DNA of 62,560 nucleotides, from positions 1 through 62,560 of IMG/VR virus record IMGVR_UViG_3300011442_000003; one strand, 5' to 3'. The notes under the pieces were generated by a model. That model was not told the origin of the DNA, did not search any database, and was given only the letters and a program-made list of their open reading frames with translations. Positions 124 through 61,121 of this stretch are shown piece by piece. Origin of the DNA: a virus (Duplodnaviria; Caudoviricetes). Both the position numbers and the translations under genes were made by a program. Position 1 is the first letter of the stretch, and the number at the start of each line of letters is the position of its first letter.

Positions 124-639
124 AAGCGCCTGCGTGACCCCGATGGTAACCCTCAGGTGCCGCGCCCGTTCATGGCGTTCCCGTGGGCACCAGAGGACTG
201 GGCGTTCAAGCTGGGGTCTCCCCACCCCACGCTGTCCGAAGCCCGCTCTGCCGTCGCCAAGGCGTGCCTGAGCCCCACTCTCAGCGTGCTGAACAGCACG
301 CGCCACCTGCCCGTGCCAAGTACGGTATGCAAGCTGCCGCGTCGGATAACTACGTTGGTATACCCCAACCCATTGCCGCGCGAGCAGCACGAGCTTGGAT
401 GGCGGGAGCTACTTCCATGGTTACTCGCGTTCAACCGCTCGCCGCATCCCAGCGATGCACAGGTCCGCGAGCTTTGGATCGAGTACCACGAACGGCAGGG
501 GGTCCAGCCGCCCACCGTGGTCTACGATCCCGACCGGCAGGTGAGGCGCGAGCGTCAGGAGCGCACCCGCCGGTATTCGCGCAACGCCCGCGAGGTGCGG
601 GCTGGCCTGCGCCCCAGAACATGGCTCAAGCTACGCTGA
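1..639 (+). CDS. 3' part of an origin-spanning ORF (true start ATG 62399); GIY-YIG-like N-terminal motif
   Basis: Frame is open from ATG 62399 (after GAGGT SD) across the junction: MADRTLPFPFDTRELRLAGELHQPAYTYALIHLPSGRVHLGASDDIRK; YTY-x9-HLG resembles a degenerate GIY-YIG. Confidence 0.6.
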   Translation, partial: ELRLAGELHQPAYTYALIHLPSGRVHLGASDDIRKAANMWAKRLRDPDGNPQVPRPFMAFPWAPEDWAFKLGSPHPTLSEARSAVAKACLSPTLSVLNSTRHLPVPSTVCKLPRRITTLVYPNPLPREQHELGWRELLPWLLAFNRSPHPSDAQVRELWIEYHERQGVQPPTVVYDPDRQVRRERQERTRRYSRNAREVRAGLRPRTWLKLR

Positions 640-808
640 AATGAGGGCACCCGGCTACCGCGAGCGAAGTCCTCGCCTCTGGCCGGGTCGAAGCACTGGA
701 GCACGGGTGGGCAAGGCCCGTGACGCGCGGCCCGCGCGTGGCATAGGATGGGACAAGCCTATGCCGCCAGTGTATCTTTAACCACCAACATAACCAAGGA
801 AGTAAGCC

Positions 809-997
809 ATGATCGATCAGTACAACATCATCGGCGCACTCATAGTGCTGCAGATGGCGCTCTCGGCTCTCGCGTTCGGCTACATGGGCTGGCGCTCCAC
901 CGTGCACGCCAAGCCCTTCAGCGCGCTGTTCGGCTACGTCTGCGCCTTCTTTACGTCGGGGCTGGCCGGGATTGCCGGGCAACTGGTGTTCGGCTGA
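809..997 (+). CDS. Small membrane protein (2 TM)
   Basis: Two hydrophobic segments; AAGGAAG SD; stop overlaps next start (TGATG). Confidence 0.65.
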   Translation: MIDQYNIIGALIVLQMALSALAFGYMGWRSTVHAKPFSALFGYVCAFFTSGLAGIAGQLVFG

Positions 998-1221
998 TGT
1001 CATCGTTCCGCCGGGGCTGGAAGGATTACCAAGGTGGTAGTTCGTTCGCTGCCGAATACGAACGCTGGTCGCCCCAGCAGCAGCTTGCCTATGAGAGAGG
1101 CCGTCGTGCCGCAGCGGTGGCGTCGTACCACACCAAGGGTACGGTATGCCGGTCATGGAAGGACGCACGCGCCGTGATCCCCCGAGGACTTCGGGCGGCG
1201 GCGCTGCGTGAGGTGCGCTGA
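997..1221 (+). CDS. Hypothetical protein
   Basis: ATG 997 coupled to the upstream stop and TGATG-coupled to the next gene. Confidence 0.6.
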   Translation: MSSFRRGWKDYQGGSSFAAEYERWSPQQQLAYERGRRAAAVASYHTKGTVCRSWKDARAVIPRGLRAAALREVR

Positions 1222-1433
1222 TGGAAGCTACCATCCTGCTCGCCTTTGTCGCCGCCTACTACATCATCAAGGAGTGGGAGGCGCACAAGGAGCGCACCCT
1301 GACCCAACGCTGGGAAAGTCAGAAAGCCATCGAGCGGGCGTGCAAGGAACACGATGCCGCTGAACGAACCGCACAGATGGGCGCGCCCGCACATTGGGCG
1401 AGCGACCCCGAGGAGGATAACCATGCAGGTTAG
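1221..1433 (+). CDS. Small protein with N-terminal TM anchor
   Basis: ILLAFVAAYYII; GAGGT SD; translational coupling. Confidence 0.6.
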   Translation: MEATILLAFVAAYYIIKEWEAHKERTLTQRWESQKAIERACKEHDAAERTAQMGAPAHWASDPEEDNHAG

Positions 1434-1695
1434 CAAGGATCTGGCGCAGCTTGAGTGCGTGATTACCCAAGCCGAGGCGGACAAGCTGGAACGCATCCGC
1501 CTCGATAGCCGTGGCGGCATGTGCGGCACCGGCATCGTTGCCGTCGGTCACACTCCCGAGGGCGAGATCGAGGACGAGCATCAAAAGTTCGTGATCTTTC
1601 CCTGCTTCCTCGTGAACCTCGACAGCACGGGCTGTTACCCCGAGTTCGTCTATCTCTCGCGCACCGGCTATCCCTTGCCGGTGACGGTTGAATAA
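1423..1695 (+). CDS. Hypothetical protein
   Basis: GAGGAGG SD before ATG 1423. Confidence 0.6.
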   Translation: MQVSKDLAQLECVITQAEADKLERIRLDSRGGMCGTGIVAVGHTPEGEIEDEHQKFVIFPCFLVNLDSTGCYPEFVYLSRTGYPLPVTVE

Positions 1696-1711
1696 CTAGT
1701 GAGGTAATCTA

Positions 1712-2023
1712 ATGATGCTGAACATACGTGTTATCATCGCGCACCTGCCCGAGGACTGGATCAGCCAGTCGCGCTACGACGACCTGACCAACGTTACCAC
1801 CGTGGTGATCGACGACCGGCGCATCCCCGAGGGGCGCACGCTGCAGTTCATCATCGCCCACGAGATCAGTCATGCCCTCGCGGCGTATGAGCATCGGCAA
1901 CGGTATGCAGCGCGCTTCAACGCCGCGCAGGACTACATCATCAACGAGATGCTGAAGCCCTCGCGCATACGCACCGACGGCCACCAGATCGACGCCGACG
2001 GCATCGACTGGTCGCGTTCATAA
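1712..2023 (+). CDS. Small HExxH (ImmA/IrrE-like) metallopeptidase-motif protein
   Basis: FIIAHEISHAL motif; GAGGT SD. Confidence 0.55.
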   Translation: MMLNIRVIIAHLPEDWISQSRYDDLTNVTTVVIDDRRIPEGRTLQFIIAHEISHALAAYEHRQRYAARFNAAQDYIINEMLKPSRIRTDGHQIDADGIDWSRS

Positions 2024-2054
2024 ACCCTAACCAGTGAGGTAACCAACAACCAAT

Positions 2055-2639
2055 ATGTACCAGCACAATATCGAGGGCGACGCCCTGCGTGCGGCCTACA
2101 ACTGGCACGGCACGCAGACGCGCAAGGACAGCGACGTGCCCTACATCATCCATCCTGTACGCGTCGGCTTGCTGATCAGCGTGGCGTTCACCGAGGTGCC
2201 GCGCTTCGAAACCGGCGGCGACAACCCCGACATGATCGTTGCGGCGGCGTTCCTGCACGACGTGGTCGAAGATTGCAACGTCAACCTTGCCGACTTCGAA
2301 CAGGAGTTCGGCTACCACGCTGGTAACCATCTCTACAGGTTGGTCAACGAGGTCACCGAGCCAAGTCGTGTGCACAAGGGAGACCCACTATGGAACCGTG
2401 CGGCGCGCAAGTCGCTCGACGCCCAACACTACGGCAACTCATCACCTGCGGGGGCGACCATCAAGCTGGCCGACATCATCGATAACCTCAGCGAGATCGA
2501 GAAGCTCCAGCCGCGTTTCCTGCCGGTATACATGCGCGAGATGCTCGCTCTCGTGCCGCTGCTGGCGCACGGGCACCCCACGCTGTACGCTCGTGCCGAG
2601 CAAGCCATCGGCATAACCAGTGAGGTAACCAGATGCTAG
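2055..2639 (+). CDS. HD-domain (p)ppGpp hydrolase-like protein (Mesh1/small alarmone hydrolase family)
   Basis: H-x-x-Q-x-RK...PYIIHP...AAFLHDVVED...LVNEVTE...IKLADIIDNL match RelA/SpoT hydrolase motifs. Confidence 0.85.
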   Translation: MYQHNIEGDALRAAYNWHGTQTRKDSDVPYIIHPVRVGLLISVAFTEVPRFETGGDNPDMIVAAAFLHDVVEDCNVNLADFEQEFGYHAGNHLYRLVNEVTEPSRVHKGDPLWNRAARKSLDAQHYGNSSPAGATIKLADIIDNLSEIEKLQPRFLPVYMREMLALVPLLAHGHPTLYARAEQAIGITSEVTRC

Positions 2640-2845
2640 GTCGCTATCTCGTGCACGCCGAGCAGACCACGTCGAGCCAGAGCGGCAGCACGCTCTACAA
2701 CTACTACATCCGTGAGCGAGGCGCGCACGAGGGGGAGTACCTCGCCCGCGTCTATGACCCCCAGCTTGCCGACCGCATCGTGGATCTTCTCAACAGGTAC
2801 GGTACGCCCCGGCCCAGCACGGCCCAACAACAGAAACTTCTTTAA
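2633..2845 (+). CDS. Hypothetical protein
   Basis: Motif/SD at 2614-2628. Confidence 0.6.
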   Translation: MLGRYLVHAEQTTSSQSGSTLYNYYIRERGAHEGEYLARVYDPQLADRIVDLLNRYGTPRPSTAQQQKLL

Positions 2846-2874
2846 CCAGCTAACTAACCAACGAGGTAAGTCAA

Positions 2875-3987
2875 ATGTATCTTCGTCAACTCGCGACCCG
2901 GCTCTATCCGATACTCGCTTCCGACAACGCGGTTGAGCTTATTAGCCCGCCGGGAATTGGTAAGTCCGAGTTTGTGCGGCAGTTCGTCGAGGAACGCCGT
3001 CGCATCACCGGCAAGCGCATCGGCCTTGGCATCATGATGATCGCCAACTACACGCCGATTGATCTTCTGGGATACATGATCCCCGAGGACACGCTGATCA
3101 CCAACGCCGACGGCATTACCATCACGGTTAAGCGTTCGGTCTACACGATCCCGCCGTGGTTCCTGTCGGAGGAGGGTATCCCCCTCAACGACTACGACGA
3201 AGCCTACCTGTTCATGGACGAGTATGGTCAGGGCGAGCCCGACGTGAAGAAGCTGACGGCTGAGCTATTGCTCAATGCCCAGATCGGCCCGTGGAAGCTG
3301 GACAAGAGCAAGGTGTTTCGCATCGCCGCGAGCAATCGCGCGAGCGACCGTTCGGGTGTGACCAAGTCGATGGATCACATCATCAACCGACGCATCGAGC
3401 TTCACATCAAGCCCGACTGGCTCTCGTTCGACCAGTGGGCCATGAAAGGCGGCGTCGCGCCGTTTTTCCGGCTCTATGCCGAGAAGCACATCGAAGTGGT
3501 GTTCAGCGGCACCATGCCCAAGGACCAAGGTCCCTTCTGCACGCCTCGCTCGCTGGTGAAGCTCTCACGCGTGTTCGACGCCTTTGCCGACCCCGACACG
3601 GGGGCTTACCCGGCTGGTAACGACGAGGAGATGGCGTTCCTGTCGGAGGTAGCCGAGGGCACGGTGGGCACGCCTGCAGCGCGCTCGATCATGGCCTTCA
3701 TCAAGGTCCAGACCGAGACGCCTGCCTTCGAACTTATCGTGAAAGATCCCAAGGGCGTGTGGTTGCCCGAGCGTGCCGACGCCAAGATGCTCACGGCCTA
3801 CTCGTGCGCGCATCGCGTCGACGTGTCCAACATCGCCCCGGTGATCGAGTTCATGCAGCGGCTGAGCCCTGACTACGCAACCACGTTCGCGAAGTCGGCG
3901 GCCAAGCGGGACCATCGCCTCATGAAGTCCAAGGAGTTCTTGGGCTGGGTGTCCAAGAACGCCGCGCTGCTCAACGCGATCAGCTAG
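2875..3987 (+). CDS. MoxR-type AAA+ ATPase
   Basis: Walker A SPPGIGKS, Walker B YLFMDE, sensor AASNR, IINR, TPRS. Confidence 0.85.
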   Translation: MYLRQLATRLYPILASDNAVELISPPGIGKSEFVRQFVEERRRITGKRIGLGIMMIANYTPIDLLGYMIPEDTLITNADGITITVKRSVYTIPPWFLSEEGIPLNDYDEAYLFMDEYGQGEPDVKKLTAELLLNAQIGPWKLDKSKVFRIAASNRASDRSGVTKSMDHIINRRIELHIKPDWLSFDQWAMKGGVAPFFRLYAEKHIEVVFSGTMPKDQGPFCTPRSLVKLSRVFDAFADPDTGAYPAGNDEEMAFLSEVAEGTVGTPAARSIMAFIKVQTETPAFELIVKDPKGVWLPERADAKMLTAYSCAHRVDVSNIAPVIEFMQRLSPDYATTFAKSAAKRDHRLMKSKEFLGWVSKNAALLNAIS

Positions 3988-4035
3988 GGAGCTAGTAACC
4001 AGCGTGGTTAAGCCGAGGGTTATTAACAATAACCC

Positions 4036-4064
4036 TTGACTTACGGTATGCAACTAGTTAAACA
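4036..4064 (+). promoter_or_regulatory. Putative sigma70-like promoter
   Basis: TTGACT-17 nt-TAAACA, preceded by inverted repeat GGGTTATT-AAC-AATAACCC (4017-4035); spacer contains ACGGTATGC. Confidence 0.45.
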
Positions 4065-4086
4065 ACCATAACCAAGGACATAAGTC

Positions 4087-4311
4087 ATGGCTTTGAAGAA
4101 GCGCACGTTCCGCCTCGTAATGGAATACTGGTCCGAGGACGAGAGTTCGTTCGACACGATCAAGGACATCTTCGTGACCACCGCACGGGAGACGTTCGCC
4201 GTCGGCCTGCTGGCCTCGGGCGGCGCGAGCAAGCCGCCTGTGGTGAGTATCTTCACCGACAGCGCGGCGTCGGGGTCGACCGAGTTCAATCGAGATGGGG
4301 AGGAAGTCTGA
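4087..4311 (+). CDS. Hypothetical protein between the MoxR and VWA genes
   Basis: AAGGA SD; TGATG-coupled to the VWA gene. Confidence 0.65.
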   Translation: MALKKRTFRLVMEYWSEDESSFDTIKDIFVTTARETFAVGLLASGGASKPPVVSIFTDSAASGSTEFNRDGEEV

Positions 4312-5927
4312 TGGCAAGCTTCGCGCCTATTACCAGACAGGTTAAGCCCGCCATTCCGGCGTTGCCCAACATGAAGTCGCAACTCAAGTTCGTCGAGGTC
4401 AAGCTGACGCCCGTGCAGGCGCAGGCGTGGAACGAGACCAAGACGGCGCTGATCTGGCAAGCGCCCGGCTTCGCCCATATATTTTACTCGCTCCTGAACC
4501 TGAAGAAGGACGACGGCGTGTTATTCTGGACACGCTCGATCCCGACCATGTGCACCGATGGTCGTGCCATCGCCGCCAACCCGGATTTCTTCTTTGCGCT
4601 GGCGCTGCAGTACCGGGTGTTCGGTGTGTGCCATGAGATCGCGCATGCGATGTTCAACCACTGCGAGGTGGGTTACCAGTTACAGCGGTCGGGAAAGATC
4701 CAAGTTTACCGCGCTGGTAACTGGATCAAGCTGCCGTACATCCATCTGATCGGCAACAAGGCGATGGATTACGTGATCAACGATCTTCTCGTCGAGAGCA
4801 AGATCGGCAAGTGCCACAAGAACTGGCTGCACGACACCGACATCGGCACTCACAAGAACTCGTGGGTCGAAGTCTATGAACGCCTATTCGCTGATCAGGA
4901 GGAGCCCGACGAGCCCGAGGACGGTGACGAACCCAAGGAAGGTGACGAGGGCGAGGAAGGCGAGGAGGGCGAAGCGGGTGAAGGCCCGACCCGGCCCGGT
5001 GACCAGCCCGGTGAAGGCGACGAGGAGGGTGAAGGGGAAGGCGAGGGCAAGGGCGGCAGCGAGGGCGACCCCGACGACCAAGAGGCCGAGGACGGGAACG
5101 GTACGCAGAAGCAGCCGCCTAACCAAGCTGGTAAGCCTCCCAAGGGCAAAGGTGGGGGCGGTGGCGGCAAGGTGCCGGAACAGACCCGCGACCCCGGCCA
5201 GTTCGATGATCATCTCGCACCGGGCACCATCGAGGGCAAGAACCCCGAGGAGTGTCCGACCAACGAGGCTCAGTGGCAGGAGGCCATCGCCAGTGCCATG
5301 GAGATCGCCCGTGCGCAGGGCAAGCTGCCCGGCTGCATGGAGCAGTTCTTCACGACGTTCTTGGAGCCCAAAGTCACGTGGCAGGACGAGATCCGGGGCG
5401 AACTCGCGCGCAAGGTGGGCTCGGGCGGGTATGACTTTCGCAAGGCGCATCGCAGGCTGATCGTCAGGGACATCTACGCGCCCTCACAGTCTGGCTACGG
5501 CTGCGATACCATCGTGGTTATGATCGACACGTCGGGATCGGTCTTTGCCGTCAAGCATCTGCTGGATCGCTGGTTCGCTGAAATGTCTGGCATCATTGCC
5601 GAGGTGCATCCGCGACGGCTGATCGTGATCGAGGCCGACGACGGCGTGCAGAAGGTCACCGAGGTCGAGGACGAGATGGATCTGCTGGAGTACCGGGCGA
5701 CGCCTTCCAAGGGCGGCGGCGGCACCGACTTCCGGCCCTCGTTCAAGTACCTCGATGACGAGCAAATCGTGCCCGATGCGGTGGTCTACCTCACCGACAT
5801 GTGGGGAGATTTTCCCGAGGAGGACACGGCTTACCCGGTGATCTGGGGGAGCATCACCCCCAAGGATCAGCACGAGGAGCCGCCGTTTGGTAAGGTGGTG
5901 TATATCCCCACCGACGGCACCGCATGA
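4311..5927 (+). CDS. DUF2201-type metallopeptidase + VWA domain protein (MoxR partner)
   Basis: TMCTDG, CHEIAH (HExxH), acidic E/G linker, MIDAS IDTSGS, GGGGTDF, YLTDMWG. Confidence 0.85.
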   Translation: MASFAPITRQVKPAIPALPNMKSQLKFVEVKLTPVQAQAWNETKTALIWQAPGFAHIFYSLLNLKKDDGVLFWTRSIPTMCTDGRAIAANPDFFFALALQYRVFGVCHEIAHAMFNHCEVGYQLQRSGKIQVYRAGNWIKLPYIHLIGNKAMDYVINDLLVESKIGKCHKNWLHDTDIGTHKNSWVEVYERLFADQEEPDEPEDGDEPKEGDEGEEGEEGEAGEGPTRPGDQPGEGDEEGEGEGEGKGGSEGDPDDQEAEDGNGTQKQPPNQAGKPPKGKGGGGGGKVPEQTRDPGQFDDHLAPGTIEGKNPEECPTNEAQWQEAIASAMEIARAQGKLPGCMEQFFTTFLEPKVTWQDEIRGELARKVGSGGYDFRKAHRRLIVRDIYAPSQSGYGCDTIVVMIDTSGSVFAVKHLLDRWFAEMSGIIAEVHPRRLIVIEADDGVQKVTEVEDEMDLLEYRATPSKGGGGTDFRPSFKYLDDEQIVPDAVVYLTDMWGDFPEEDTAYPVIWGSITPKDQHEEPPFGKVVYIPTDGTA

Positions 5928-6072
5928 CGCTGATCCTGTTCCAGCGTGGTGCTACTTCGTGGGGCTTCCAGATTGGGAAGCTCTGCATGTACTGGCCCTA
6001 CCTGCCGTTCTGGCGGGTGGGCTGCCGTCCCACGTTCATGTGGGAAGATGAATAACCAGAGAGGTAACTGTC

Positions 6073-6297
6073 ATGGGCGAACGTAAAGTCGAGGTCGAGA
6101 TCAACGGCACCGTGAGCGAAGAACTGAGCGCCAGCCTTGCCGCTGCCTTACGTGAGGTCGAGGCAGCCAGCGCCATGTTGGCTGCGTTGCGGGCGTGCCA
6201 CGACGTTCTGATGATGAACCCTCATACCAACGCAGGGCGGGCGCACAAGATGGCAGCAGTCGCTATCGCGCAGGCCGAGGAGGCGGGCATCGAATAA
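6073..6297 (+). CDS. Hypothetical protein
   Basis: Motif/SD at 6053-6067. Confidence 0.6.
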   Translation: MGERKVEVEINGTVSEELSASLAAALREVEAASAMLAALRACHDVLMMNPHTNAGRAHKMAAVAIAQAEEAGIE

Positions 6298-6490
6298 TTT
6301 GGGGTGGTGTGTCAGTCCTTTACGGCGACGGGGCGAGCCCGAAACAGCAAGTTCCTCCTGCCTAACCGCGCAGTCCCCTGCAATCGTACATAGCTGCGCG
6401 GCATGGTCAAATCCTGCACACCAGCGTTGTGCACCGGCAACAACGGTATGCAACGTGACATTACTGGATAAGGGAACAGCCCCACTTATT
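6298..6490 (+). ncRNA. Putative structured non-coding RNA
   Basis: Several complementary stems with G-U pairs in a ~230-nt intergenic gap (see findings). Confidence 0.4.
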
Positions 6491-6528
6491 TAACTAGTCT
6501 AACCAGTGTAACCAACGAGGTAATCAAT

Positions 6529-7125
6529 ATGCCGAGCAAAACCCGACTGAACAAGGACATGCGCCACATGCTGCTGCGACTGGCGAGAGATCGCGTCAAG
6601 GCCCCCAAGAGCGTCGAGGACGCGTTCACCGCCGCCCACAAAATCTGCGAGAAGGAGATCCGGCGCGTCTGCAAGGGTCTATTTCCCAAGCGCGATATGG
6701 AGGTGTTGAAGAAGTACCACGCCGCGCATCAGCCGCCCTACATCGACCTGATCATCCCCGGCGAGGCGGCGCGGTTCGACCGCTTTAACTTCGTTGGTCA
6801 CTCGTGGGAGACGGCGCGCACCGGCACGACCGACCTGCCGTGGGTGCCCAAGCACACCGAGCATGGTCGCATCCAGTTGGACGAGCGTGCCGCCAAGGCG
6901 TTCCAAGTCTACGCCAGTGCCGCCGCCGGGCGCGAGATGGCACGCAACGAACTGCTGGGCACGTTCGAAACGGCGATCCGCAACGCCAAGAACCTTGAGG
7001 AGATCGAGGCGGTATGGCCTGCCGCCCGCGAGGCGCGCGTCTATGCCCCGCCGTCGGTCCCCGCCGTGATCCTGTCCACCGTGTTCGACCGGATGCGCGA
7101 GGCGGTCGAGCAGAAGAACGCGTAA
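6529..7125 (+). CDS. Nmad5-like (nucleotide-modification-associated domain 5) protein
   Basis: N-terminal RLNKDMR and C-terminal AKNLEEIEAVWPAARE are typical of Nmad5. Confidence 0.65.
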   Translation: MPSKTRLNKDMRHMLLRLARDRVKAPKSVEDAFTAAHKICEKEIRRVCKGLFPKRDMEVLKKYHAAHQPPYIDLIIPGEAARFDRFNFVGHSWETARTGTTDLPWVPKHTEHGRIQLDERAAKAFQVYASAAAGREMARNELLGTFETAIRNAKNLEEIEAVWPAAREARVYAPPSVPAVILSTVFDRMREAVEQKNA

Positions 7126-7138
7126 CCAGAGAGGTAAC

Positions 7139-7564
7139 ATGACCGAGCTTTTCAAGTGCGCCGTCGCGCCCTGTAAATCTTGCCCCTACCGCAAAGACGT
7201 GCCGTCGGGGGTCTGGGCGATCAACGAGTACGTCAAGCTGCCCGAGTATGACGGCGAGATCTTCGAACAACTCATGAAGGGCGCGACGGCGCTGTTCATG
7301 TGCCATCAGAACGACGGCAAGCTGTGTGCCGGGTGGGTCGGCGCGCACGGCCCGCAGAACCTGCTGGCGATACGCCTGCACAACGACAAGGTCGACCCCG
7401 AGGTGTCCAAGTACAAATCCCCGGTGGCGCTGTTCAAGTCGGGTGCGGCGGCAGCAAAGCACGGTATGCGCGCGATCCGGCGGCCTGCCGTGCGTGCCCG
7501 CCAGATGGTCGAGCGACTGGCGCGCAAGCAGAAGCGGCTCTCCAACAACTCCCATAACCAGTGA
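7139..7564 (+). CDS. DUF6283-like Cys-rich protein
   Basis: PCKSCPYRKDVPSGVW...YVKLPEYD...FMCHQ...LCAGW. Confidence 0.7.
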   Translation: MTELFKCAVAPCKSCPYRKDVPSGVWAINEYVKLPEYDGEIFEQLMKGATALFMCHQNDGKLCAGWVGAHGPQNLLAIRLHNDKVDPEVSKYKSPVALFKSGAAAAKHGMRAIRRPAVRARQMVERLARKQKRLSNNSHNQ

Positions 7565-7571
7565 GGTAACT

Positions 7572-7868
7572 ATGAAGGAGATAACCGTCGATCCGGTTTG
7601 GGTCGCGGCCACGCTGTTCACCGTGATGGGTGTCGCCTTCGGGTGGTACATCGTCAGGCTGGATCACATGGTCGAGGATCTGCGTCGCGAGATCATCAAG
7701 ATCGAGAAAGACATCGGCAAGCTGCAGAACGCCGACGTTACCTGCACCAACGACCAGACCATCCTCAAGCAGGACATGTCGGCCATCCGCGAGACGATGC
7801 TCAAGATCGTTGCCCGTCGCTTCATGCGGCGCGGCCTTCGCAAGGACTTCAAGGATCGGGTGCGCTGA
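7572..7868 (+). CDS. TM-anchored coiled-coil protein
   Basis: N-terminal TM followed by a heptad-rich region; motif/SD at 7555. Confidence 0.65.
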   Translation: MKEITVDPVWVAATLFTVMGVAFGWYIVRLDHMVEDLRREIIKIEKDIGKLQNADVTCTNDQTILKQDMSAIRETMLKIVARRFMRRGLRKDFKDRVR

Positions 7869-8041
7869 TGCGACAGAAGATGGCACCCCTCCTCATGTGC
7901 GTGATCTGCCTCGCCATGGCGGCGTGGGTCGTGTGGGGCGGCGGACCCGACGACAGTGCCCGGCTTGTTGTCGGGATGGTCTCGATGATCGGCACCTGCG
8001 TGGCGATTATCGCGATTGTCCTACCTAATCCGTGGGACTGA
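7868..8041 (+). CDS. Small 2-TM membrane protein
   Basis: TGATG coupling; two hydrophobic segments. Confidence 0.55.
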   Translation: MRQKMAPLLMCVICLAMAAWVVWGGGPDDSARLVVGMVSMIGTCVAIIAIVLPNPWD

Positions 8042-8064
8042 GGCGATTAACCAGTGAGGTAACT

Positions 8065-8193
8065 ATGCCTATAATGACGTTATACCATGCTGGCCTTGCA
8101 GGCTTCGCGCTTGGCTGCTTCGTCGGCTGGTTTGCCCGCGTCGGCTGGCGCTGGCATCGCCGCCGTCGGCATCGCCTACATTACGGAGATTAA
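8065..8193 (+). CDS. Small membrane peptide (42 aa), not in the ORF track
   Basis: MPIMTLYHAGLAGFALGCFVGWFARVGWRWHRRRRHRLHYGD; motif/SD at 8048. Confidence 0.5.
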   Translation: MPIMTLYHAGLAGFALGCFVGWFARVGWRWHRRRRHRLHYGD

Positions 8194-8194
8194 C

Positions 8195-8494
8195 ATGGCA
8201 CGTTTCAGAGGCACCGTTCAGGGAGGACGTGGCGAGGGCTCCCGGCTGGGTCACGTGAGTACCGGCCTGACCACGCGAGCGAACGGCTGGAGCGGACGCA
8301 TCAGCACCCGTCTATTCGTCAACGAGAGAGACGAGGACTGGGCCAGCGTCCACCACGAGGACAACGCGGGCAACTGCAAGACGCTCTATCACGGCCCGCT
8401 CAACAAGTACGTCCCCGAGACCCCGTGGGTCGAGGTGCCGTGGAAGATCGAGCCGGTGTCCCTTACCAGTGAGGTAACCCATGCGAAGGAATAA
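8195..8494 (+). CDS. Phage hypothetical protein
   Basis: GGAG SD; MARFRGTVQGGRGEGSRLG N-terminus. Confidence 0.6.
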   Translation: MARFRGTVQGGRGEGSRLGHVSTGLTTRANGWSGRISTRLFVNERDEDWASVHHEDNAGNCKTLYHGPLNKYVPETPWVEVPWKIEPVSLTSEVTHAKE

Positions 8495-8714
8495 GCAACC
8501 GATCATCCACGGGCGGGTCAAACCCCACCCCGAGATGCAGAAGCTGATGCACATGCTGCGCGCGACCGGCAAGATCCACAATGGCGAGCCGCAGCGCCCG
8601 CCCATCGACAAGCGCGACGCCGACGAGGCGTTCACGTGGATGGTGCACGGCTTTGGTTGGGCGCTGCTGGCCGTGATGATCGCCGTCATTGGTTATGTCT
8701 ACTGGCAAACCTAA
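8481..8714 (+). CDS. Small protein with C-terminal TM
   Basis: Motif/SD at 8463. Confidence 0.55.
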   Translation: MRRNKQPIIHGRVKPHPEMQKLMHMLRATGKIHNGEPQRPPIDKRDADEAFTWMVHGFGWALLAVMIAVIGYVYWQT

Positions 8715-8943
8715 GCGCCGCAGGCGCTACGCGTGGATACGCTACGTGCCGCATCCCAACGGGGATCTGGTAGCCGACATGTCGGGCTTCCACGACTGGG
8801 GCACGGTCGATCAGATCCAGTGCCCCAACCTACTGTCACATAGCTACCAGTTAAATAACCCGTGGCTCATGATCGAGAACCCCGGCATCAACGAAAGGGT
8901 GCCCCGCTTGCAACGGATCGAATGGAAGGAACCCCAAAAATAA
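8689..8943 (+). CDS. Hypothetical protein
   Basis: Fills the gap in the + strand gene run; start uncertain. Confidence 0.45.
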   Translation: MVMSTGKPKRRRRYAWIRYVPHPNGDLVADMSGFHDWGTVDQIQCPNLLSHSYQLNNPWLMIENPGINERVPRLQRIEWKEPQK

Positions 8944-8965
8944 GTTAAATAACTATTAGTGGTAC

Positions 8966-8994
8966 TTGACAGGTTATGTAACCCGTGATATAGT
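8966..8994 (+). promoter_or_regulatory. Sigma70-like promoter
   Basis: TTGACA-17 nt-TATAGT with AT-rich upstream; spacer holds GGTTA-TG-TAACC. Confidence 0.75.
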
Positions 8995-9021
8995 GTCACG
9001 GACAATCGAGAGAGGTACGGT

Positions 9022-9210
9022 ATGCCAGATAATTTCAAGCCTGCCCGCATCGTCAGGTTCGTCGCGGCCAACGATCTCTACCCCGGCCATATCTGCGAGT
9101 TCGACAAGGAGAAGAACATCCTTCGCATCAACCGCGAGATATACAGCGCGCTGACCGAGCGCCAAAAAACCAAGGTGTTCCGATCCAACGAGACCATCGC
9201 TTCCTTCTGA
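9022..9210 (+). CDS. Hypothetical protein
   Basis: GAGAGG SD; directly downstream of the promoter. Confidence 0.6.
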   Translation: MPDNFKPARIVRFVAANDLYPGHICEFDKEKNILRINREIYSALTERQKTKVFRSNETIASF

Positions 9211-9231
9211 CCAGATAACCAGCGAGGTAAC

Positions 9232-11703: not shown

Positions 11704-13568
11704 TGCTGGGGTTTGACGCAGAGACGTATTACTCGACGGCGCTGAAGTACTCGCTGAAGAAAATGAATATGATAGAATATATCTGTGACCCTCGTTTCGA
11801 GGTGATCGGCGCTGCCTTTCGAGAAAATCACGACGAGCCATATTGGATCGACGGCCCTGATATGGCGCGCCATCTTCAAAGTTTCGACTGGGCTAACACT
11901 ACAGTCGTCGGCCATAATTTACAATTCGATGCTTCGATCCTAAGCTGGGTTTACGGTATACATCCCAAGCTGTGGTTCTGCACGCTCGCCGCCGCGCGCA
12001 CCCTATGGCAGCACAAGTTCAAGTACCTGTCCCTCGCCAAGCTTGCCGAAAGCTTCGGCTTCCCGGCCAAGGGCACCACCGTGGTCAAGGTGGATGGTAT
12101 GACGCGGCAGATGATCATCGATGCCGGGCTCTACGACGAGTACGTCGACTACTGTCTGCACGACGTTACCTTGTCGGTAATGCTCTACGAGCTTCAGAAG
12201 GATCACATACCAGTTCGGGAGATGGTCCTCGCTGATAGTGTGTTGCGGCTCACCACCGAGCCACGTCTCACGCTCAACTACACGAAACTCGGGGCGCACC
12301 TGTTGGAAGTTAAAGCATCCAAGGAACAATCCATGGCGCTGGCGATGTTCGCGGGCATCAACGGCAAGGACGACCTGATGTCCAACGACCGGTTCGCGCA
12401 GGCCCTCATGAACTTGGGCGTAGATCCCCCTCGCAAGATCAGCGTTACAACAGGTAAGCGCACGTGGGCGTTTGCGAAGTCCGATCCCGACTTCAAGGAG
12501 TTGGCTAACCACGAAAATAACCACGTTCAGAACCTCGTCGCGGCAAGGTTGGGTCACAAGTCTACGCTCGATGAAACTCGTGCAGAACGCCTTATCAAGA
12601 CGGCGGGGTTCGACTTCCCACAATGGGGCATGCACATACTGCCGGTCCCCTTGAAGGTCTCTGGCGCGCACACGCACCGACTTAGTGGCGATGCTGGGTT
12701 AAATCTTCAGAACCTCCGACGTGGCGGTCTCCTCAGGGAAGCCATCGAGGCACCCGAGGGCTATAAGATCGTGGCGGGGGATTTGTCCCAGATTGAGGCG
12801 CGCATGAACGCGGTGTTCTGCGGTCAGCTAGATTTGATCGAGCAGTTCAGGACCGGCCAAGATCCCTACTCGATCATGGCATCGAGGGTGTTCGGTCGCA
12901 CGATCACCAAGGCCAACGTGGGCGAGCGTTTCATAGGTAAGAAGCTGGTGCTGAGCGCGGGCTACGGGGTGGGTCACGTCAAGTACCACGCGACCTTGCG
13001 GCACGACAGCATGGAGCAGCTAGGCGAGATGCTCGACATCGACATTGCCGAGGCGCAGCGCCAGATATTGGCCTACCGCGCGATCAATTCAAACATCGCT
13101 CACATGTGGGCCAAGCTGGGGAACATCATCCCCGAAATGACCAGTGTTCATACCAACTTTCAGTTGGGGCCGGTCGTGTTCCAGCACGAGGCAATCCGGT
13201 TACCATCGGGGTTACATCTCCACTACCATAACCTGCGGCTTGACCACGTCTCCAACAACTGGCTCTACGACTACGCGGGTCGACCCAAGCGTATTTATGG
13301 CCCCAAGCTGCTGGAGAATATCATCCAAGCTCTGGCGCGCATCGTGATCATGGATGCGATGGTCTCTTTGCGACGCGAGCTTATCGGGTTCGACGCGCAC
13401 TGGGTTCATCAGGTCCACGACGAGCTTGTTTACCTAGTTAATGATCACTACGTGGACGTATTCAAAGAGCGTCTCCAGCGTGCGCTGACCACGCCGCCAG
13501 CGTGGATGCCGACGCTTCCGCTGGCCTGTGAAATAGGTGTCGGGTCCAACTACGGTGAGTGCAAATGA
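11694..13568 (+). CDS. DNA polymerase family A with 3'-5' exonuclease
   Basis: ExoI FDAETY, ExoII GHNLQFD, ExoIII YCLHD; motif A GDLSQIEAR, motif B RFIGKKLVLSAGYG, motif C VHDELV. Confidence 0.93.
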   Translation: MGLVLGFDAETYYSTALKYSLKKMNMIEYICDPRFEVIGAAFRENHDEPYWIDGPDMARHLQSFDWANTTVVGHNLQFDASILSWVYGIHPKLWFCTLAAARTLWQHKFKYLSLAKLAESFGFPAKGTTVVKVDGMTRQMIIDAGLYDEYVDYCLHDVTLSVMLYELQKDHIPVREMVLADSVLRLTTEPRLTLNYTKLGAHLLEVKASKEQSMALAMFAGINGKDDLMSNDRFAQALMNLGVDPPRKISVTTGKRTWAFAKSDPDFKELANHENNHVQNLVAARLGHKSTLDETRAERLIKTAGFDFPQWGMHILPVPLKVSGAHTHRLSGDAGLNLQNLRRGGLLREAIEAPEGYKIVAGDLSQIEARMNAVFCGQLDLIEQFRTGQDPYSIMASRVFGRTITKANVGERFIGKKLVLSAGYGVGHVKYHATLRHDSMEQLGEMLDIDIAEAQRQILAYRAINSNIAHMWAKLGNIIPEMTSVHTNFQLGPVVFQHEAIRLPSGLHLHYHNLRLDHVSNNWLYDYAGRPKRIYGPKLLENIIQALARIVIMDAMVSLRRELIGFDAHWVHQVHDELVYLVNDHYVDVFKERLQRALTTPPAWMPTLPLACEIGVGSNYGECK

Positions 13569-22790: not shown

Positions 22791-23069
22791 ATGACCGATC
22801 ACCCTCCCCGCTACTGGCTGCCCGACCCCGCGCTCAAGCTCAGCGACACGTCGCTGGAACTGGTGCGCTCCGAGTTTAACCCCTCGGGCATCGATGCCGT
22901 GACCAAACTCAAACTGATGGCGGCGGCGCTGATCACCATGGCCGAGGAGATCCGGGGCTCGATCCCGACCAGCGCCCGGCACTGCGCGCTGGGCATCACC
23001 GCCATCGAGGACGGCGCGATGTGGCTGGTTAAAGCGGCGACGACGCCGGTCCCCAAGCCTAAGAGCTAA
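22791..23069 (+). CDS. Acb2/Tad1-like helical-hairpin protein (candidate signalling-nucleotide sponge)
   Basis: VR-x-x-FNPS...K-x-x-AA-x-LI...R-x-x-AL-x-IT-x-IE-x-x-AMW-x-VKA pattern. Confidence 0.6.
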   Translation: MTDHPPRYWLPDPALKLSDTSLELVRSEFNPSGIDAVTKLKLMAAALITMAEEIRGSIPTSARHCALGITAIEDGAMWLVKAATTPVPKPKS

Positions 23070-23359
23070 CGTCCCTTGCCGTAGCCCGCCGCGTCGTGGG
23101 TGTACTTCTGGGTGCGCGCATGACCATGGGTCATGTTGGACTTGTCTGCGCGGTTCTCGTTGGGATCGCGCAGACGCAGGTTGGAGATCGCATTAGTGCC
23201 GCCCTCGCTCAGGGGCTTGATGTGATCGACATCCTTGCCTTCGACGGCGGCCTCGCCCCATCGCTTGATCGCCTCGCGACGTGCCTGAACCCGCGCATCG
23301 GTTAGCTCGACGCGCGACTTGTCGTAGGCCGAGTAACCTCTAGGCCCCTTGGCTGGCAT
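23066..23359 (-). CDS. HNH endonuclease
   Basis: GKDVDHIKPLSEGGTNAISNLRLRDPNENR. Confidence 0.85.
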   Translation of the reverse strand: MPAKGPRGYSAYDKSRVELTDARVQARREAIKRWGEAAVEGKDVDHIKPLSEGGTNAISNLRLRDPNENRADKSNMTHGHARTQKYTHDAAGYGKGR

Positions 23360-23609
23360 CGAGCGGCCCTCCGACTGCTGGACCTGTCGGCGTGACAACG
23401 GGTGCCTGTGGCGAGAACGCCACGACATCGGCCACGTTGACGACCCAGACTTGCCCACTGTCCTCGACGAACTTCCCCATGCCGGAAGTCGGGTACCATA
23501 CCCAGTTGCCGACCATTCGCACGCCGTTCGACAACAGGAGCACGCCGACCGGTGCGCTCATTGGCAACGGCAAGTCGTAGACGAAGGCGTACTTGACCGG
23601 GTTAAACAT
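23340..23609 (-). CDS. Hypothetical protein
   Basis: Part of the tight - strand run. Confidence 0.55.
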   Translation of the reverse strand: MFNPVKYAFVYDLPLPMSAPVGVLLLSNGVRMVGNWVWYPTSGMGKFVEDSGQVWVVNVADVVAFSPQAPVVTPTGPAVGGPLDASQGA

Positions 23610-24670: not shown

Positions 24671-27600
24671 TCAGTAGTTGTACGTCGCTTGGGCGTGCTT
24701 CGCAACCTCGGGCACCCGCTTGCTGACGCGCGCCCCGGCAGGCAGGCCCGCTCGACGTGCCTCCATCTCGGATCGCTTGGCAGCGCGCTCCTGCTTGATC
24801 AGGTCGCCCATCTGGATCTTCGCGTTGGCCGAGGTCTGCTGGGAGTTGAACCGCTGGACCGCCGCCCACGCATTGGCCTTGTCGTCGGGGTTGTCGGCAC
24901 CGACCCAGCGACCCGACAGTTCAGTACGCTGCTTGGCATAGCTCTGGTTGCCGCCGTAGATCACGCTCTTGGCAGCGTTGGCCTCGGCAATGCGCGAAGG
25001 CCGGAAGCCGAAGCCCTGTACGATACCCTCCGCAGGCGTCCACTGGTCGCCCGCCGCACGACCCGAGGGTCCGACCTTGCCGTGCATCACGTTGGTGTAG
25101 CCCTTGACGCTGTCAGCGGCGAGCTTGAGGGGTGCCAGCTTGTACGCCGCGTCGCCGTAGTTGCCCGCCGCGATGTCGCCAATGCCTGACAGATAATCCA
25201 TCGACATGCCGACGCCCGACCCCGAGAGCCACTTGCCGAAGTAAACAAACAGGTCGTCGGCCTTGCGCGACTTCGGCGCACCGAACGGTCCCAGCAACTG
25301 GTTGAGACCGAACCGGCTGGAGGTATCCACGCCGAACAGGCTCGGCACGCCAGTCGATACAAACTGCCCAGCTTCCTTGCCGAACGCCGCCGCCACGGTC
25401 TCCCTGAACGAGTTCTGTAACGTCTCCGAGGTCTCGTCGGTGAGGCCCATGGCGTTCATCATGTTTACCGCCATGGTAACCGGCTCGGTAGGCAGGCCCA
25501 GCGCACCCGCCATGATGAAGTGCGTGCCCATCAGCCAGCCCATCGCCTTGGCGTTCTCCAGCTTGTGATCACCGATCATCATGCCGTGGCCCATCTTCGC
25601 CAGCAGGTAGTACTGGCGCTGGCCGAACTTGCGGAACTGCAAAGCCACCCTACCGAGAGGGTGATTAAACATCGGCGGCGCGTTCCACCGATCATAGGTG
25701 CCCATCGTGTGATCGAGCGTCTCGGCCACCTTCTCGATGGCCTTCGCGTGGGCATTAGGGTCGCTACCCAGCTTTTCACGCGCCAACCTGTACGCCGCGA
25801 CCGCCATCACGCTGCGGTTGGTCCCCTCGATGGCCTGTCCCATCTGGCGAGACACGTGATCAGCACGGTCCACCGCCCGGCCCACGATGTTGGTGCGAGA
25901 TGGATCCAGCTTCTGAAGCTCCATGCCCGCCTCGCGACCGGTCATCCCCCGATCCCTGATGTCGTCGAGCATGCGACGCTCGTCGCCCGCGAACCGGTTA
26001 CGGATCCGGTCGCTGAAGTCCATCGTCTCGTTCTCGCGCAGCGCCTTCACCGTCTCCTTCATGCCGTGCCACACGATGTCTCGGCCACCGATGTCGAAGT
26101 AGGCTTTGGTCAGCGCCGCCATCGATCTCGCGAAGCCGTACTCGCCTGCCATGTAGGGCAGGCCAATCATGTAGGGCTCCATCGAGTTGATCACGTGGAA
26201 CGCCGGGCTTGCCAGCCTGCGCAGGAAGCTTAGTTGCAGCAGCCGGTTGATCGAACGTCCTAGCAGGCCGTCGTTGTTGGGCGGTGCCACCTGATCGCGC
26301 CGCGCGTCGAGGTGGTTCATCACTTCCGAGCGCAAGAACGCGTTGGTGTCGGTGCCCTTGGTCTTGACCTCCTGCTGCATGATGTCGGCCACCCGATGAA
26401 TGTGGGGACCGAACTCCAGCCGGGCGATGTAACCGGAATTGGAGTGTGCGAAGTCGGCAAAGTTGGATCCCAGTTCGTTGCTCGCGCCCAGCACGTTTTT
26501 ACGAGGGAGCCGGTGGCTCTGCACCCGCGTAGATCCCAGTACCCGGATCGCGTGCTGTGCCAGCACGTCACGCATCACCTGCTGGTCGGCCTTGTCGAGC
26601 TTGGCGAAGCCGGTCGACCTCTCCATGGCGTTCTTCACGCCGATCATTTCACGCGACATCAGGTCGGTGACTTGCCCCGTCGGCTCGTAGGGGCGCTTGC
26701 CGTACTCGGTGACCTTGAAGCCTTTCACGGCCTCCATCTCGCGACGACCCATCTCGGCGTTGGTCATCGTGTCGTGGAACTGCACGTCCTTGTTCTGCAT
26801 CGTCGTGTGTATACGCCGATCATAATTGGCAGCGATGAACGCGTCACGCGCTTTGATCCCGTCGGCACGCGTCGCGTGGATCTGGTGGTTACCACCATAG
26901 TTAGTTTCAAAGGTCGGCGGCGCGCCCGGTGCCGCAGATAGTTTCTTGGGCATCGGCACGGTCTCGACTTTGTTGGTCGCCTTGTTGACCAGCTTCTCGC
27001 CCGTGCTCTGCGCCTTGAACGGGCTGTTCTCGATGAAAGGCCGCGCCGTGGTCTCGTCGGCAAACTCGTAGGTATTGAACTCGTGCGCGCGGTCAACGTG
27101 ATCAGGGTTGCTCGGATCGTAATCCTCGCCAGCCTTATCCATACGACGTAGCTGTCCCGGCGCGTCGGCAAGCTCGTGGTAGCCCGTCACGTGATAGTCG
27201 CCGCGTCGCATGAGAGGCATGTACGGCCCCTCGATCTCGGCCAGCGCCCGGATCTCTTTCAGGCGCTTGCCCTCGGGACCGGTGTTGAGAATATCCTTGT
27301 AGAGATCCTTGTTAGCGTGGGTGTCAGGACGCCCGTCGCGCAGCCACTGTTTGAAGTCCTCGATGCCCGCCTTGTCGAATATAGGTGCCTGCTTTGCCTT
27401 CTGAGCTTCAGCATTGCGGATCGCATCAGTCAGTTCGTCTACCACGTTGTCGGTTAGCCAGTCCGACATCGCCTTATGTTGCTTCTTAAAGTACAGGTGC
27501 GCGTCGCCACGCAGGTTCACGAGGTCGGTCGGCAGCATGGCGTAGCGTTTTTTACCCTCGGTAAGCCCAGCCAGCGCCTGCGCATGGTCGAGGTTCTTGG

Positions 27601-30600
27601 GATCGAGATGCGCATTGCTCTCGCCGCCCCAGAACGCACCTTGCACGGTCTCGTCGTGCACCAGCTTGGTGAAGAAGTCCCACATAGAGCCGCCCTTGCC
27701 GTCGGGCGAGGTGCCTTCCAAACCATACTTACGCTGAAGCCGATAGGCTTCGTTGGTCAGCTTCGCGCCCTTGCTGTCGTGCATGATGCTCTCGGCACGG
27801 GCGTTTTGTCGTTGATGCAGATCAGCGTAGACGCGGCTCAGAGACTTACCCTCCATCAAAGGTCGCAGGTTGTCGGGCATCAGTTCAAGGGCGCGCTTGG
27901 CGAGGTCCGAGTGCTTCTCCGACAGGTTACCAAACAGGTAATCCATGCCCTGCCCGATCTGCATCGAGGTCTTGAAGTGCAGCATCTTGGCTGCCCAGCG
28001 TTGGGTGAACGTCGCACCCGACGCCGACATGCGGGCGGCTTGGTTGGTGATCCCCTGACGCACCTGCTGAGCAACCGGTATCCGGTAGGGGTACGACCCC
28101 GCCGTGCTTCCAGCGTTCATGTCGGCGGTTGCCTGCGCGAACCGGCTGCTGCGCGACGCCGTGATCTCGCGGGCATGCTCGGCGGCGTGCTGGTTCATTC
28201 GAACCACCGCCTCGATGACCGTCATCTTGGGGCGCGAGATGTTCAACGCCCGCATGATCAGGCCGACGAACGCCTTCGCCATGTTCATCGGCGTGGTCGC
28301 CTTGGGCAGGCCCTGTATGTAGGCAACCACGGCGTCGGGCGCTTGCATCCCCGCCATCTCGTCGAACAGCTTGCCGCCCTTGATCGCGTCGGCGGCGAAC
28401 TCGTAGACATCGACGAACGCGTTGTGCCTCGGCATCGAGGTTTCGTCGGCAGCCTTTTCCATCAGGGCCTGCATGTGGCCCAAGAACACCGGATCGTTGT
28501 CGAGCTTCTTGGTCGTGGCGGCGTGGCCGTATTCGTGGGTCAGCACCTCGATCAGGAACTCGGGGTCGTTCCACGTCCGCTCGGGGATCAGGATCTTGCC
28601 CTGCGTCGCCTGACCAGCTTTCTGCGATGGCGTCTCGTGATAGACGCCGCCGACAGTGTCACCGTCCTCGTTAAACAACCGCGCGACGATCTCGTTCCAG
28701 TGCGCGTCGCTCACCACCTCGGTCCTGATGTGCGGCACCGCGCTGCGCATGGTCTGCGCCCACTCGATCAGGTGCTTATGGTACTGGTGGTCGCCCGGCT
28801 GCTCCTCGGGCTCGCGCAGCTTCTGCTGGAAGTGCCGGATCACGTTGGCGAGCGCCACGTGCCCCGGCAACCGGTTCAACACCGGTACGCGCACCTTCTG
28901 GCCGATCAGGTGGTCGGGGATGTACTTGGCATGCGGGCTGGTGTTGGGATCGACCTCGGTGGTCGGCCTGCGGATCGCTTGTCCTGTGTCGTCGGGGTCG
29001 ATCTCGGTGAAGCCGTGCGCGCTGAGGCTCTCGCCAGCTTCCTTCTCGCGACCTACCCGCTCACCCTCACCAAGCCCGCTGGCCCGCGACAACTTCTCGG
29101 TGTCCGCGTCGGCACCCCGAAGGGGAGCTTCCTTCTTCTCGCCGCTCAGGTCGGGCCGCTCGTCGTCCATGCCCCGTGCGACGTTCTCGATGGGCTTGCC
29201 AGAGGCTTCGCGGCGGGCCTGCTTCTCTAATGCCGAACGCTCCTCGCGCCGCGCCCCCAGCGCGTCGAGATGCTCTGCACCACCCTTGCGCAGGAACGCC
29301 ATCGTCTCAGCGAAGTCGATGAAGTCCTGATTGATCCGTGCCGCGCGTTTTTCCCGCGCCTTGACTGTACCGGTGTCGCGCTTGGCCCAGCGTTCCAGCA
29401 TCATCTTGGTGTCGCGCAAGGCGTTCATCACGCTCTGGTTGACCTTGCCCTCCTTCGACCACACCGCCTTGCCGCCAACCTCGCCAACCTTGTCCTCGAT
29501 AGCCTTGACCAGTGCATGAGCCCGCACGATCACCCGGTTGCGTGCCCCTGCCCGTGAGCCCTTCGCGTCGTCGCTCTGCCGCAGCGCCATCACCTCCTCG
29601 GCAGCGTGCGTGTCGTGGTCCTCCGACAGGTTCTCGACGTGACCACGCGCCGCGTCGCGCACCAGCACCTCGGTCGCCTCAGTGCCTTCCTTACGCACCT
29701 CGCGCGCCTTGGCGGCACGCTTGGTGTTCGCCTCCTCAGCCCGCTTCAGCGTGGCGACCCGGTGTTCGTCCAGCAGGCGCGCGTGGATCGTCTCCACGTC
29801 GTCGACCTTCTTGAACTTGACGGGCCTGCCTGCAGCACGGTCGGCAGCGCGCTCCTCAGCACCATCCTTGACCTTCTGCGCGTGCTCAGCCTTGGCTTCC
29901 TCCATAAGACGTTCGCTGGCCTGCAGGGCGCTCTCGACAGCCTCGCCACCGCGCACAGCCGTGTCGGCTTCCTTGGTGCGCTTGCCGGTGTCGGGCTCCT
30001 TCACGCCGCTGACGCCCTCCTCGACCTTGGTGACGGTCGGCTTCTTGGGCTCGGGCTTCGCCTCGGGCTTCGGTGCTACCGTCTCGGCAGGTTTGCCGTG
30101 GACCTTCTCCCAAGCCTTTAGCGCATCGTCGAACTTCCACTGGACATCGAAGTCCTCCCGCACTGGACGGGACGACTGCTTGATCTGCTCCTGCTCGGCA
30201 GCTTCCAGCGCAGCGCGGCGCTTGGCTTTCTCGGCAACGAACTCGGGCCTGCGCTTCGCCAACTCGGCACCGACCATGTCACCGCCGAAGCGGGCATCGA
30301 CCTCTTTATCGTGTGCGCCGAAATGCTCTCGCGCCGCAGCGACCTCAGGCGTATCCGTGCCCGTCCAGCGAGGAACCTCGGGCACCACTTCAGGTGCTTT
30401 AACTGGTTCCACAACCGGAGCAGGCTCCTCGGGCGTCCTCGCTGCCTCAACAACCGGAGCCGTGTCGACGACCTTCACCTCGGGGAGAGCCTCAGGCACG
30501 ACTTCGGGCGTAACTACAGGAACCGTCTCAGGGACAACTTCAGGAGGCTTAGCCTTAGCTGCCTCGGCGGCGGCTTTCCGAGCATCGTTACGAATGTTGG

Positions 30601-60931: not shown

Positions 60932-61121
60932 GTCATGCTCAATATCCGGTTAATGAACCGCAAGATAGGCGGAATACGCTTTGTTCGCATCGGTAGGCTG
61001 TTTTTCAGCTTCGGAGTGTCCCGCCGATAGGGTACGGTACGCATGCCCCAACCATAAGACAACACGTTTTGCTAGTTCAATAACCCGTAACCACGATGGT
61101 TACAGAAAGCGAGAGAGTGCA

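Follow-up and report, generated by a model that had tools for sequence, protein, structure and literature searches.

Site-specific single-strand interruptions have been mapped in the DNA of Pseudomonas phage tf, a LUZ24-like phage, where they are associated with the 9-mer TACT/RTGMC (Glukhov 2012, PMC3517423). Among relatives of tf the positions are kept and the main word is shifted, and the authors propose that nickase and site co-evolve (PMC3517423). In Rembedalsseter, 13 strand-specific drops in Nanopore coverage coincide with WACTRTGAC (Dougherty 2025, PMC11780129). Across 61 tf-related genomes the nick-linked word averages a net 9.0 copies, gathered on one genome side, and lies mostly, not solely, on the coding strand; the same account gives the function of the nicks as still unknown as of 2025 (PMC11780129). 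Here we describe an array of another 9-base word, ACGGTAYGC, in a tailed phage genome, the IMG/VR record IMGVR_UViG_3300011442_000003 (Caudoviricetes), the whole 62,560 nucleotides of which are referred to below as the window. Judging from the comparative analysis, we put the probability that these words are the recognition sites of a phage-specified, sequence-specific nicking activity at about one half.

Phage T5 is an unrelated siphovirus with a genome of approximately 120 kb. Its interruptions, like those of BF23, are found on one strand at the short consensus R/GCGCRGG, as given in PMC3517423. Unlike the family described here, T5 has few major and many minor nicks, and its 7-base consensus also occurs on the strand that is not nicked, so that extra determinants are needed (PMC3517423). 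The T5 nicking genes sciA and sciB have been mapped, and the relevant part of that account names no other enzyme for the described systems (PMC3517423). The nicks of phiKMV-like phages are on one strand at a conserved word, as those proposed here would be, and their function is likewise described as unknown; these phages differ in a 19-base consensus, about four nicks per genome and a location on the non-coding strand (PMC3517423).

An exact scan of both strands of the window identified 11 copies of ACGGTAYGC, all on the + strand and none on the − strand, which reproduced copy for copy the positions given in the original prediction. All of them are contained in a 10.4-kb arc running from 61034 through the origin to 9025. 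Dinucleotide-preserving shuffles of the window (n = 100) contained a mean of 1.09 copies (maximum 5), and none of the 100 reached 11. For one strand of the 10.4-kb arc the shuffles give an expectation of ~0.09 copies, in agreement with the 0.1 that had been estimated previously. The ten gaps between neighbouring copies are unusually even, ranging from 759 to 1556 bp with a coefficient of variation of 0.25; the probability of a minimum gap of at least 759 is 1.5e-5 for 11 random points placed on the array span. Copies occur in mixed reading frames and partly in intergenic DNA, and the repeat is therefore a DNA-level word, not a peptide repeat. The earlier description thus holds as far as it concerns a DNA-level signal that is polar, non-palindromic and mainly found in the early region. 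A looser form of the word, ACGGTAYRC, adds a 12th + strand copy (ACGGTATAC, 11953..11961, within the DNA polymerase gene), a form also present in the sister contig L012 described below, bringing the window to 12 copies on the + strand and 0 on the − strand.

The arc can be regarded as continuous. The window starts and ends with an exact 123-bp copy (1–123 = 62438–62560), which leaves a unique length of 62437, and the same phage is present in one metagenome run (X1) as a 62464-base contig with a different overlap. This 'direct terminal repeat' is therefore probably an artefact of overlap in a circular assembly and not a pair of physical ends; the molecule was thus circular or permuted in assembly. 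The contig of one relative (G002) ends within the late region and not at the homologous place.

The window, a metagenomic virus record, represents a podophage of ~62.4 kb, and its nearest cultured relatives are the Rhizobium phages RHph_TM27A, TM27B, TM29 and TM3_14A (59% identity in the portal protein). Conservation in related phages, on which the original prediction had staked itself, was found: the array is a trait of the whole phage family, and the observation is much broader than first noted. A sister contig (L010/L012), in which two early proteins are 68–81% identical to those of the window, carries nine ACGGTA copies, every one of them on the + strand, at a spacing similar to that of the window. 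Its main form is ACGGTAYAC, with ACGGTACAC present six times, ACGGTATAC once and ACGGTATGC twice. At exactly the position that corresponds to the window copy at 4043, L012 (10935) reads ACGGTACAC in place of ACGGTATGC, the last three bases having changed; the word has therefore shifted while the place stayed. Other copies are without an L012 partner, and sites therefore turn over between the two phages while number and spacing are kept. Several blocks of nucleotide homology between the window and L012 start or stop 10–45 nt from a copy (688–1131 before the copy at 1141, 6316–6414 before 6443, and 2849–5931 after 2799); such edges may be mosaic junctions located at the copies, or may do no more than coincide with the limits of genes.

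Alignment of the ATPase led to ~18 more distant relatives in viral contigs (33–47% identity) and to 80 metagenome loci, which include duplicates of viral contigs. Gene directions were mapped from open reading frames (ORFs) conserved between genomes, long ORFs alone being too noisy at this GC content. A blind k-mer scan revealed that (C)GCGCACTCA(Y) is present in nearly all relatives, in 5–15 copies confined to the early-sense strand. Counts on the early-sense versus the other strand were 8 vs 0 for GCGCACTCA in TM27A, 160 vs 3 across 20 loci, 116 vs 8 for GCGCACTC across the 80 metagenome loci, and 58 vs 2 over the whole genomes of five complete relatives; a phage copy found in a bacterial genome (G006, see below) gave 14 vs 0 by strand. 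While GCGCACTCA is the word of most relatives, GGCTCTCAG is that of one relative, and further clade words are G(G)CTCTCAG in L137 (10 vs 0), GCGCATTC in L027 (6 vs 0) and GCGCACTCC in L021 (4 vs 0), in addition to less certain candidates. The layout common to the family is one of 8–15 copies per genome, which are crowded where the early region begins and become rarer further along. Seven independent copies were found in the late regions of relatives, on the same DNA strand and at non-homologous places, five of them within conserved late genes of opposite direction; about 0.07–0.6 copies per whole genome per strand would be expected by chance. The array therefore follows the DNA strand and not the sense of transcription. 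A literature search by GCGCACTCA or by the names RHph_TM27A, TM27B, TM29 and TM3_14A, which did not cover supplements, found no report of the array, and the matches listed for GCGCACTCA were unrelated primers and oligonucleotides only.

Words one mismatch away from the consensus are depleted. Genomes G001–G005 contain 17 (+) and 7 (−) such words, compared with 30 and 28 expected under an order-3 Markov model and 59 and 58 under an order-1 model; the corresponding counts in the window are 7 (+) and 5 (−) against 11–14 expected on each strand. Spacing also changes in a directional manner: beginning where the early block starts, successive gaps become wider along the strand. The Spearman rank correlation between order and spacing was 0.82 in the window (p = 0.002), and among relatives 0.95 in the G006 phage copy, 0.95 in L137, 0.96 in G004, 0.82 in G001, 0.71 in G005 and 0.83 in TM27A. 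In total, widening gaps were seen in seven of nine independent series.

The array, its restriction to one strand, the gradient in its spacing, the clade-specific words found throughout the family and the lack of enrichment in a linked bacterial genome are the observations on which a reading as nick sites is built. The original prediction did not include this reading, which fits best. Under it a phage nickase would recognise the 9-mers, and packaged virion DNA would carry programmed single-strand interruptions on the + strand only, the coding strand for the early genes. Such nicks would crowd where the early region begins and thin out further along, an arrangement like that of Pseudomonas phage tf and its relatives, the phiKMV-like phages and T5. 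We infer by analogy with those systems that the DNA may be cut at the words and that their reader, whichever protein is assigned to the role, would be encoded by the phage. Four properties of nick sites are found here: the word keeps to one strand across the whole genome (11–12 vs 0 in the window, 58 vs 2 in relatives); the consensus is short and strict, with a strong excess in the phage clade that is not seen elsewhere; the distribution is uneven and favours one genome side; and the layout is kept among relatives while the word shifts.

The closest resemblance is to tf. The tf record contains 14 copies of the nick-site 9-mer, all on the top strand, 12 of which are located in the rightward early/middle block with gaps of 0.7–5 kb that widen along it (rho = 0.78, p = 0.002). 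The other two are antisense in late genes, and several copies stand at gene junctions or on start codons, the latter also being the case for the window copy at 9017. Both the tf-like phages (~9–14 copies) and the window's family thus have a 9-base non-palindromic word on one strand or nearly so, an early-side concentration, widening gaps and a few antisense copies in late genes. In both, related phages have different main words at broadly conserved positions, and early and replication genes are oriented rightward and late genes leftward. The words themselves are unrelated, at least three or four distinct ones being present in the window's family. The hosts differ as well (Pseudomonas versus probably alphaproteobacteria), and the tf-like nicks have been mapped experimentally, whereas those of the window's family are predicted from sequence. 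The portal and terminase of the window have no similarity to those of tf, and the resemblance is therefore one of layout and not of inherited sequence. With respect to T5, its consensus and the relatives' GCGCACTCA both contain GCGC followed by a purine, which is a lead and not a test.

A small HNH endonuclease gene (23066..23458, − strand; Pfam HNH, E 8.7e-5) is a weak candidate for the motif nickase, put forward on the basis of its predicted domain. Among the window proteins, its product alone gave a BLAST similarity to phage tf, extending over no more than the HNH motif (48 aa). The tf counterpart is an unannotated frame with an HNH-type motif at 16126–16413 (+) of the tf record (L164), overlapping tf_29; the two are not the same gene, tf_29 being read in a different frame. 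Identity between the tf frame and the window protein is 44% over 48 aa (pairwise E 5e-10). Comparison of tf with the window and its relatives gave four weak BLAST hits, of which the HNH pair is the strongest and the sole one that involves the window.

A number of results weigh against nick sites. No nickase has been identified, and homologues of the HNH protein were detected by BLAST in just three of six compared relatives. Two complete relatives show no significant gradient, namely G002 (rho = 0.43) and G003 (rho = −0.12), the gap series of the latter beginning in the late region and not being anchored at the start of the early block. Gene size may also account for part of the gradient, small early genes being followed by large replication genes, provided that copies accumulate in DNA under weak coding constraint. 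Contigs from runs X1, X2, X3 and X8 showed neither pile-ups of begins or ends nor differences over positions 1–20000, although contigs cannot show nicks. Contig ends were also compared with copy positions in the 28 contigs with at least one exact copy, drawn from 73 full-length contigs. Three of the 28 real right ends fall 7–16 nt after a copy, compared with 0.33 expected, a weak hint; all three belong to the first (IMG/VR) set (3/8), the metagenome set giving 0/22, and none of the 28 left ends of fragment contigs is near a copy. Finally, copies are biased in their position relative to genes. According to crude gene calls based on GC content at third codon positions (GC3) in 27 non-duplicate loci with at least three copies (from ~100), a gene start lies at most 100 nt downstream of 26% of 206 copies and of 13% of random positions, and 43% of copies versus 26% of random positions are in called-intergenic stretches. 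The twofold enrichment upstream of starts leaves room for an expression signal; yet tf nick sites are also located at gene junctions. The bias towards gene starts is real but modest, and most copies are not promoter-like in their placement.

The individual copies in the window, all on the + strand, are as follows. The first of the array (ACGGTACGC, 61034..61042) is ~300 nt into the rightward early block, and the second (ACGGTATGC, 61971..61979) is intergenic. Beyond the origin, ACGGTATGC is found at 322..330 within ORF 73–639, at 1141..1149, with an L012 copy at about the same place (7791), and at 1900..1908, 123 nt before the stop of ORF 1712–2023. The copy at 2799..2807 (ACGGTACGC) is 76 nt upstream of the ATPase gene (2875–3987), and many relatives also have a copy just upstream of this gene. 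Another intergenic copy (ACGGTATGC, 4043..4051) directly follows a −35-like TTGACT. The original prediction had placed it in a promoter spacer; the adjoining −35-like hexamer was indeed present, but the promoter scan called no promoter there. The copy at 5098..5106 (ACGGTACGC) is in the middle of the DUF2201 metallopeptidase/VWA gene (4311–5927) and has no L012 partner, while that at 6443..6451 (ACGGTATGC) has an L012 copy at about the same place (13409). The last two copies of ACGGTATGC are at 7461..7469, within the DUF6283 gene (7139–7564), and at 9017..9025, where the ATG of the word itself is the start codon of ORF 9022–9210 and a strong sigma-70-like site (8966–8994, promoter scan) lies 23 nt upstream.

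This placement bears on an alternative in which the word acts in transcription, on the non-template strand, as a short promoter for an unrecognised phage RNA polymerase or sigma-like factor, or as a pause or antitermination site at which a factor is reloaded. Promoters of phage-encoded single-subunit polymerases are co-oriented, occur in parts of the genome at about one per kb and are phage-specific in sequence, which the density and the clade-specific words of the array resemble. All window copies are sense to the early genes, and in several relatives a copy stands 20–40 nt upstream of the ATPase gene, which together with the ~2-fold enrichment within 100 nt upstream of gene starts would fit such a role. 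We nevertheless consider this explanation unlikely. No start follows within 100 nt for 74% of the 206 copies, and the seven late-region copies in relatives are antisense. There is no fixed offset to promoter-like sequences (directly after TTGACT at 4043, 23 nt past the −10 at 9017). In 129 distinct GCGCACTC contexts, information consists of the 9 bases plus weak −2/−1 and +9/+10 positions, and no conservation was seen beyond 9–11 nt within ±30 nt; conservation of 9–11 nt leaves no melting region or second element. Polymerase promoters would stand upstream of genes, in sense and with an extended consensus, whereas most copies of the array are not upstream of genes and some are antisense.

The flanks of the 11 window copies fold differently, with the word sometimes paired and sometimes not, so that no common fold was found, and no Rfam family reached gathering score anywhere in the window. 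The nut-like antitermination site suggested originally is not supported, given the lack of a conserved hairpin, Rfam match or NusG-like gene and the antisense late-gene copies in relatives. No conserved RNA hairpin or boxA–boxB pair of the nut/put kind was found, nor was there a NusG paralogue in the window as in ops/RfaH systems. A search for NusG-like genes (PF02357) was negative in the window and positive in 11 of 14 control genomes, and a host-encoded paralogue is possible. Sigma-70 region 2 was also absent from the window (control positive in 11 of 14 genomes), and no T7-type RNA polymerase (PF00940) was matched in the window by a search whose control was silent in all 14 genomes. The sigma-70-like site at 8966–8994 suggests that the host polymerase can serve early genes.

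Rightward genes of the window extend from ~60.7 kb through the origin to 23 kb and encode, among other products, an HD phosphohydrolase, an ATPase, the DUF2201 metallopeptidase/VWA protein, DUF6283, DNA polymerase A, a PD-(D/E)XK nuclease, an SNF2 helicase and a DUF927 primase-helicase. The leftward block (23–53.6 kb) is structural, with an SU10-like portal and adaptor, an internal virion protein, a collagen-repeat fibre protein and proteins of 1231 and 2453 residues; the terminase genes are rightward (53.7–55.7 kb). The 2453-aa virion protein (24671..32032, − strand) has a DarB-like C-terminal part, its residues ~1820–2440 matching proteins annotated as DarB-like antirestriction in many ~60-kb phages. 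No match was found for the N-terminal ~1160 residues, not even in TM27A. The protein looks more like DarB than like a polymerase, and a reading as a virion RNA polymerase was set aside, with no PDB match (E ≤ 1), Pfam family or polymerase motif (regex) to be found. A megablast search of window positions 1–10000 against phage records returned no match. Eleven metagenome runs match the window, as contigs, and come from freshwater sediment; the only one that covers the window in full may be its source, and no RNA run is among those listed.

A polar signal could also be read without cutting, as in the third suggestion of the original prediction, if the word serves an injected or translocating protein as a loading point or as a cue for direction; the SNF2 helicase and the 2453-aa DarB-like protein are examples. 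Copies are densest on the DNA that would matter first once the phage has entered. The word keeps to one strand throughout the genome with density dropping from the start of the early block, and it is clade-specific and not enriched in the linked bacterial genome. A giant virion protein with the DarB-like residues described above is encoded, and TM27A, whose word differs, does not share its N-terminal ~1160 residues. Such a loading signal is also improbable: nothing ties the giant protein to the word, every one of these features is also displayed by mapped nick sites, and we know of no precedent for a signal of this type in phages, although no literature search was aimed at one. Rather doubtful, too, is a more specific version, a graded polar 'address' comparable to KOPS, in which the words would not be nicked and a phage protein would load one way and travel along the incoming DNA. 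The candidate reader would then be the giant DarB-like, helicase-bearing virion protein, and word and reader would co-evolve between clades.

The original prediction had also offered protection of incoming DNA in the manner of Chi, by attenuation of a host RecBCD/AddAB-type nuclease. The word is short, polar, over-represented and co-oriented, which speaks for it, but we regard the idea as highly improbable. A relative of the window phage (L158/L159) is present in a Pseudolabrys metagenome-assembled genome (MAG; G006), on a 465-kb contig (contig 4, ~18–142 kb), as two identical tandem copies 61,893 bp apart. Of 35 occurrences of GCGCACTCA in this 4.0-Mb genome, 28 are in the two phage copies (14 each, one strand). 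The remaining ~3.9 Mb contain 7 (2 + 5), compared with 19 (10 + 9) for the reversed control word, a result that applies to the relatives' word in one MAG, which is not a proven host. Chi is strongly over-represented in its host genome, whereas GCGCACTCA is not so in the linked genome. The last three bases of the word are not the same in sister phages, and the density of copies falls along the genome; a host Chi would be expected to show neither. The G006 tandem has higher-GC DNA on its right flank; it may be a tandem prophage that has integrated, or else a concatemer that the assembler linked to host DNA. Separately, the relative G005 is labelled as a provirus in IMG/VR.

Several other features of the window were recorded. 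An Acb2/Tad1 hairpin domain (22791–23069, +; Pfam E 5.8e-10) and a Tad2-like domain (58014–58412, −; Pfam E 3.7e-18) were predicted, and the corresponding proteins are likely anti-CBASS/anti-Thoeris sponges. The stretch at 13559–13789 (+) gave a weak, sub-threshold Pfam match to HicA toxin (E 0.0034, 17.9 bits versus a cut-off of 27). A second + strand repeat, TAACCAGTGAGGTAAC with its variant TAACCAACGAGGTAA, is found at gene junctions just before start codons (2028–2043, 2614–2629, 7555–7570, 8048–8063 and 8465–8478, and also at 2855, 6509, 10028 and 17499). It looks like a conserved junction of stop codon and ribosome-binding site, and is probably what the original prediction called its first motif. 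Two strand-biased 11-mers are dispersed genome-wide: ACCACCGTGGT (5 vs 1; 1795, 12075, 18830, 45359 and 54245) and GCTGCGCACCA (5 vs 0; 21259, 22696, 45085, 59425 and 60814).

Programmed nicks in phage DNA have been on record for ~50 years, and their purpose is unexplained in the described systems too. If the words are not nicked, the array would be an unexplained strand-polar signal of a new kind. If the nick reading is right, the array joins a class of features that is known but unexplained, and it would add a widespread family of soil and freshwater phages without sequence similarity to the known cases. Three things are clearer in this family than in those cases: gaps increase steadily beginning with the first early genes, a gradient also present in the mapped tf nicks; cultured members on Rhizobium exist; and several words are in use within one family, so that the enzyme might be found by co-variation.

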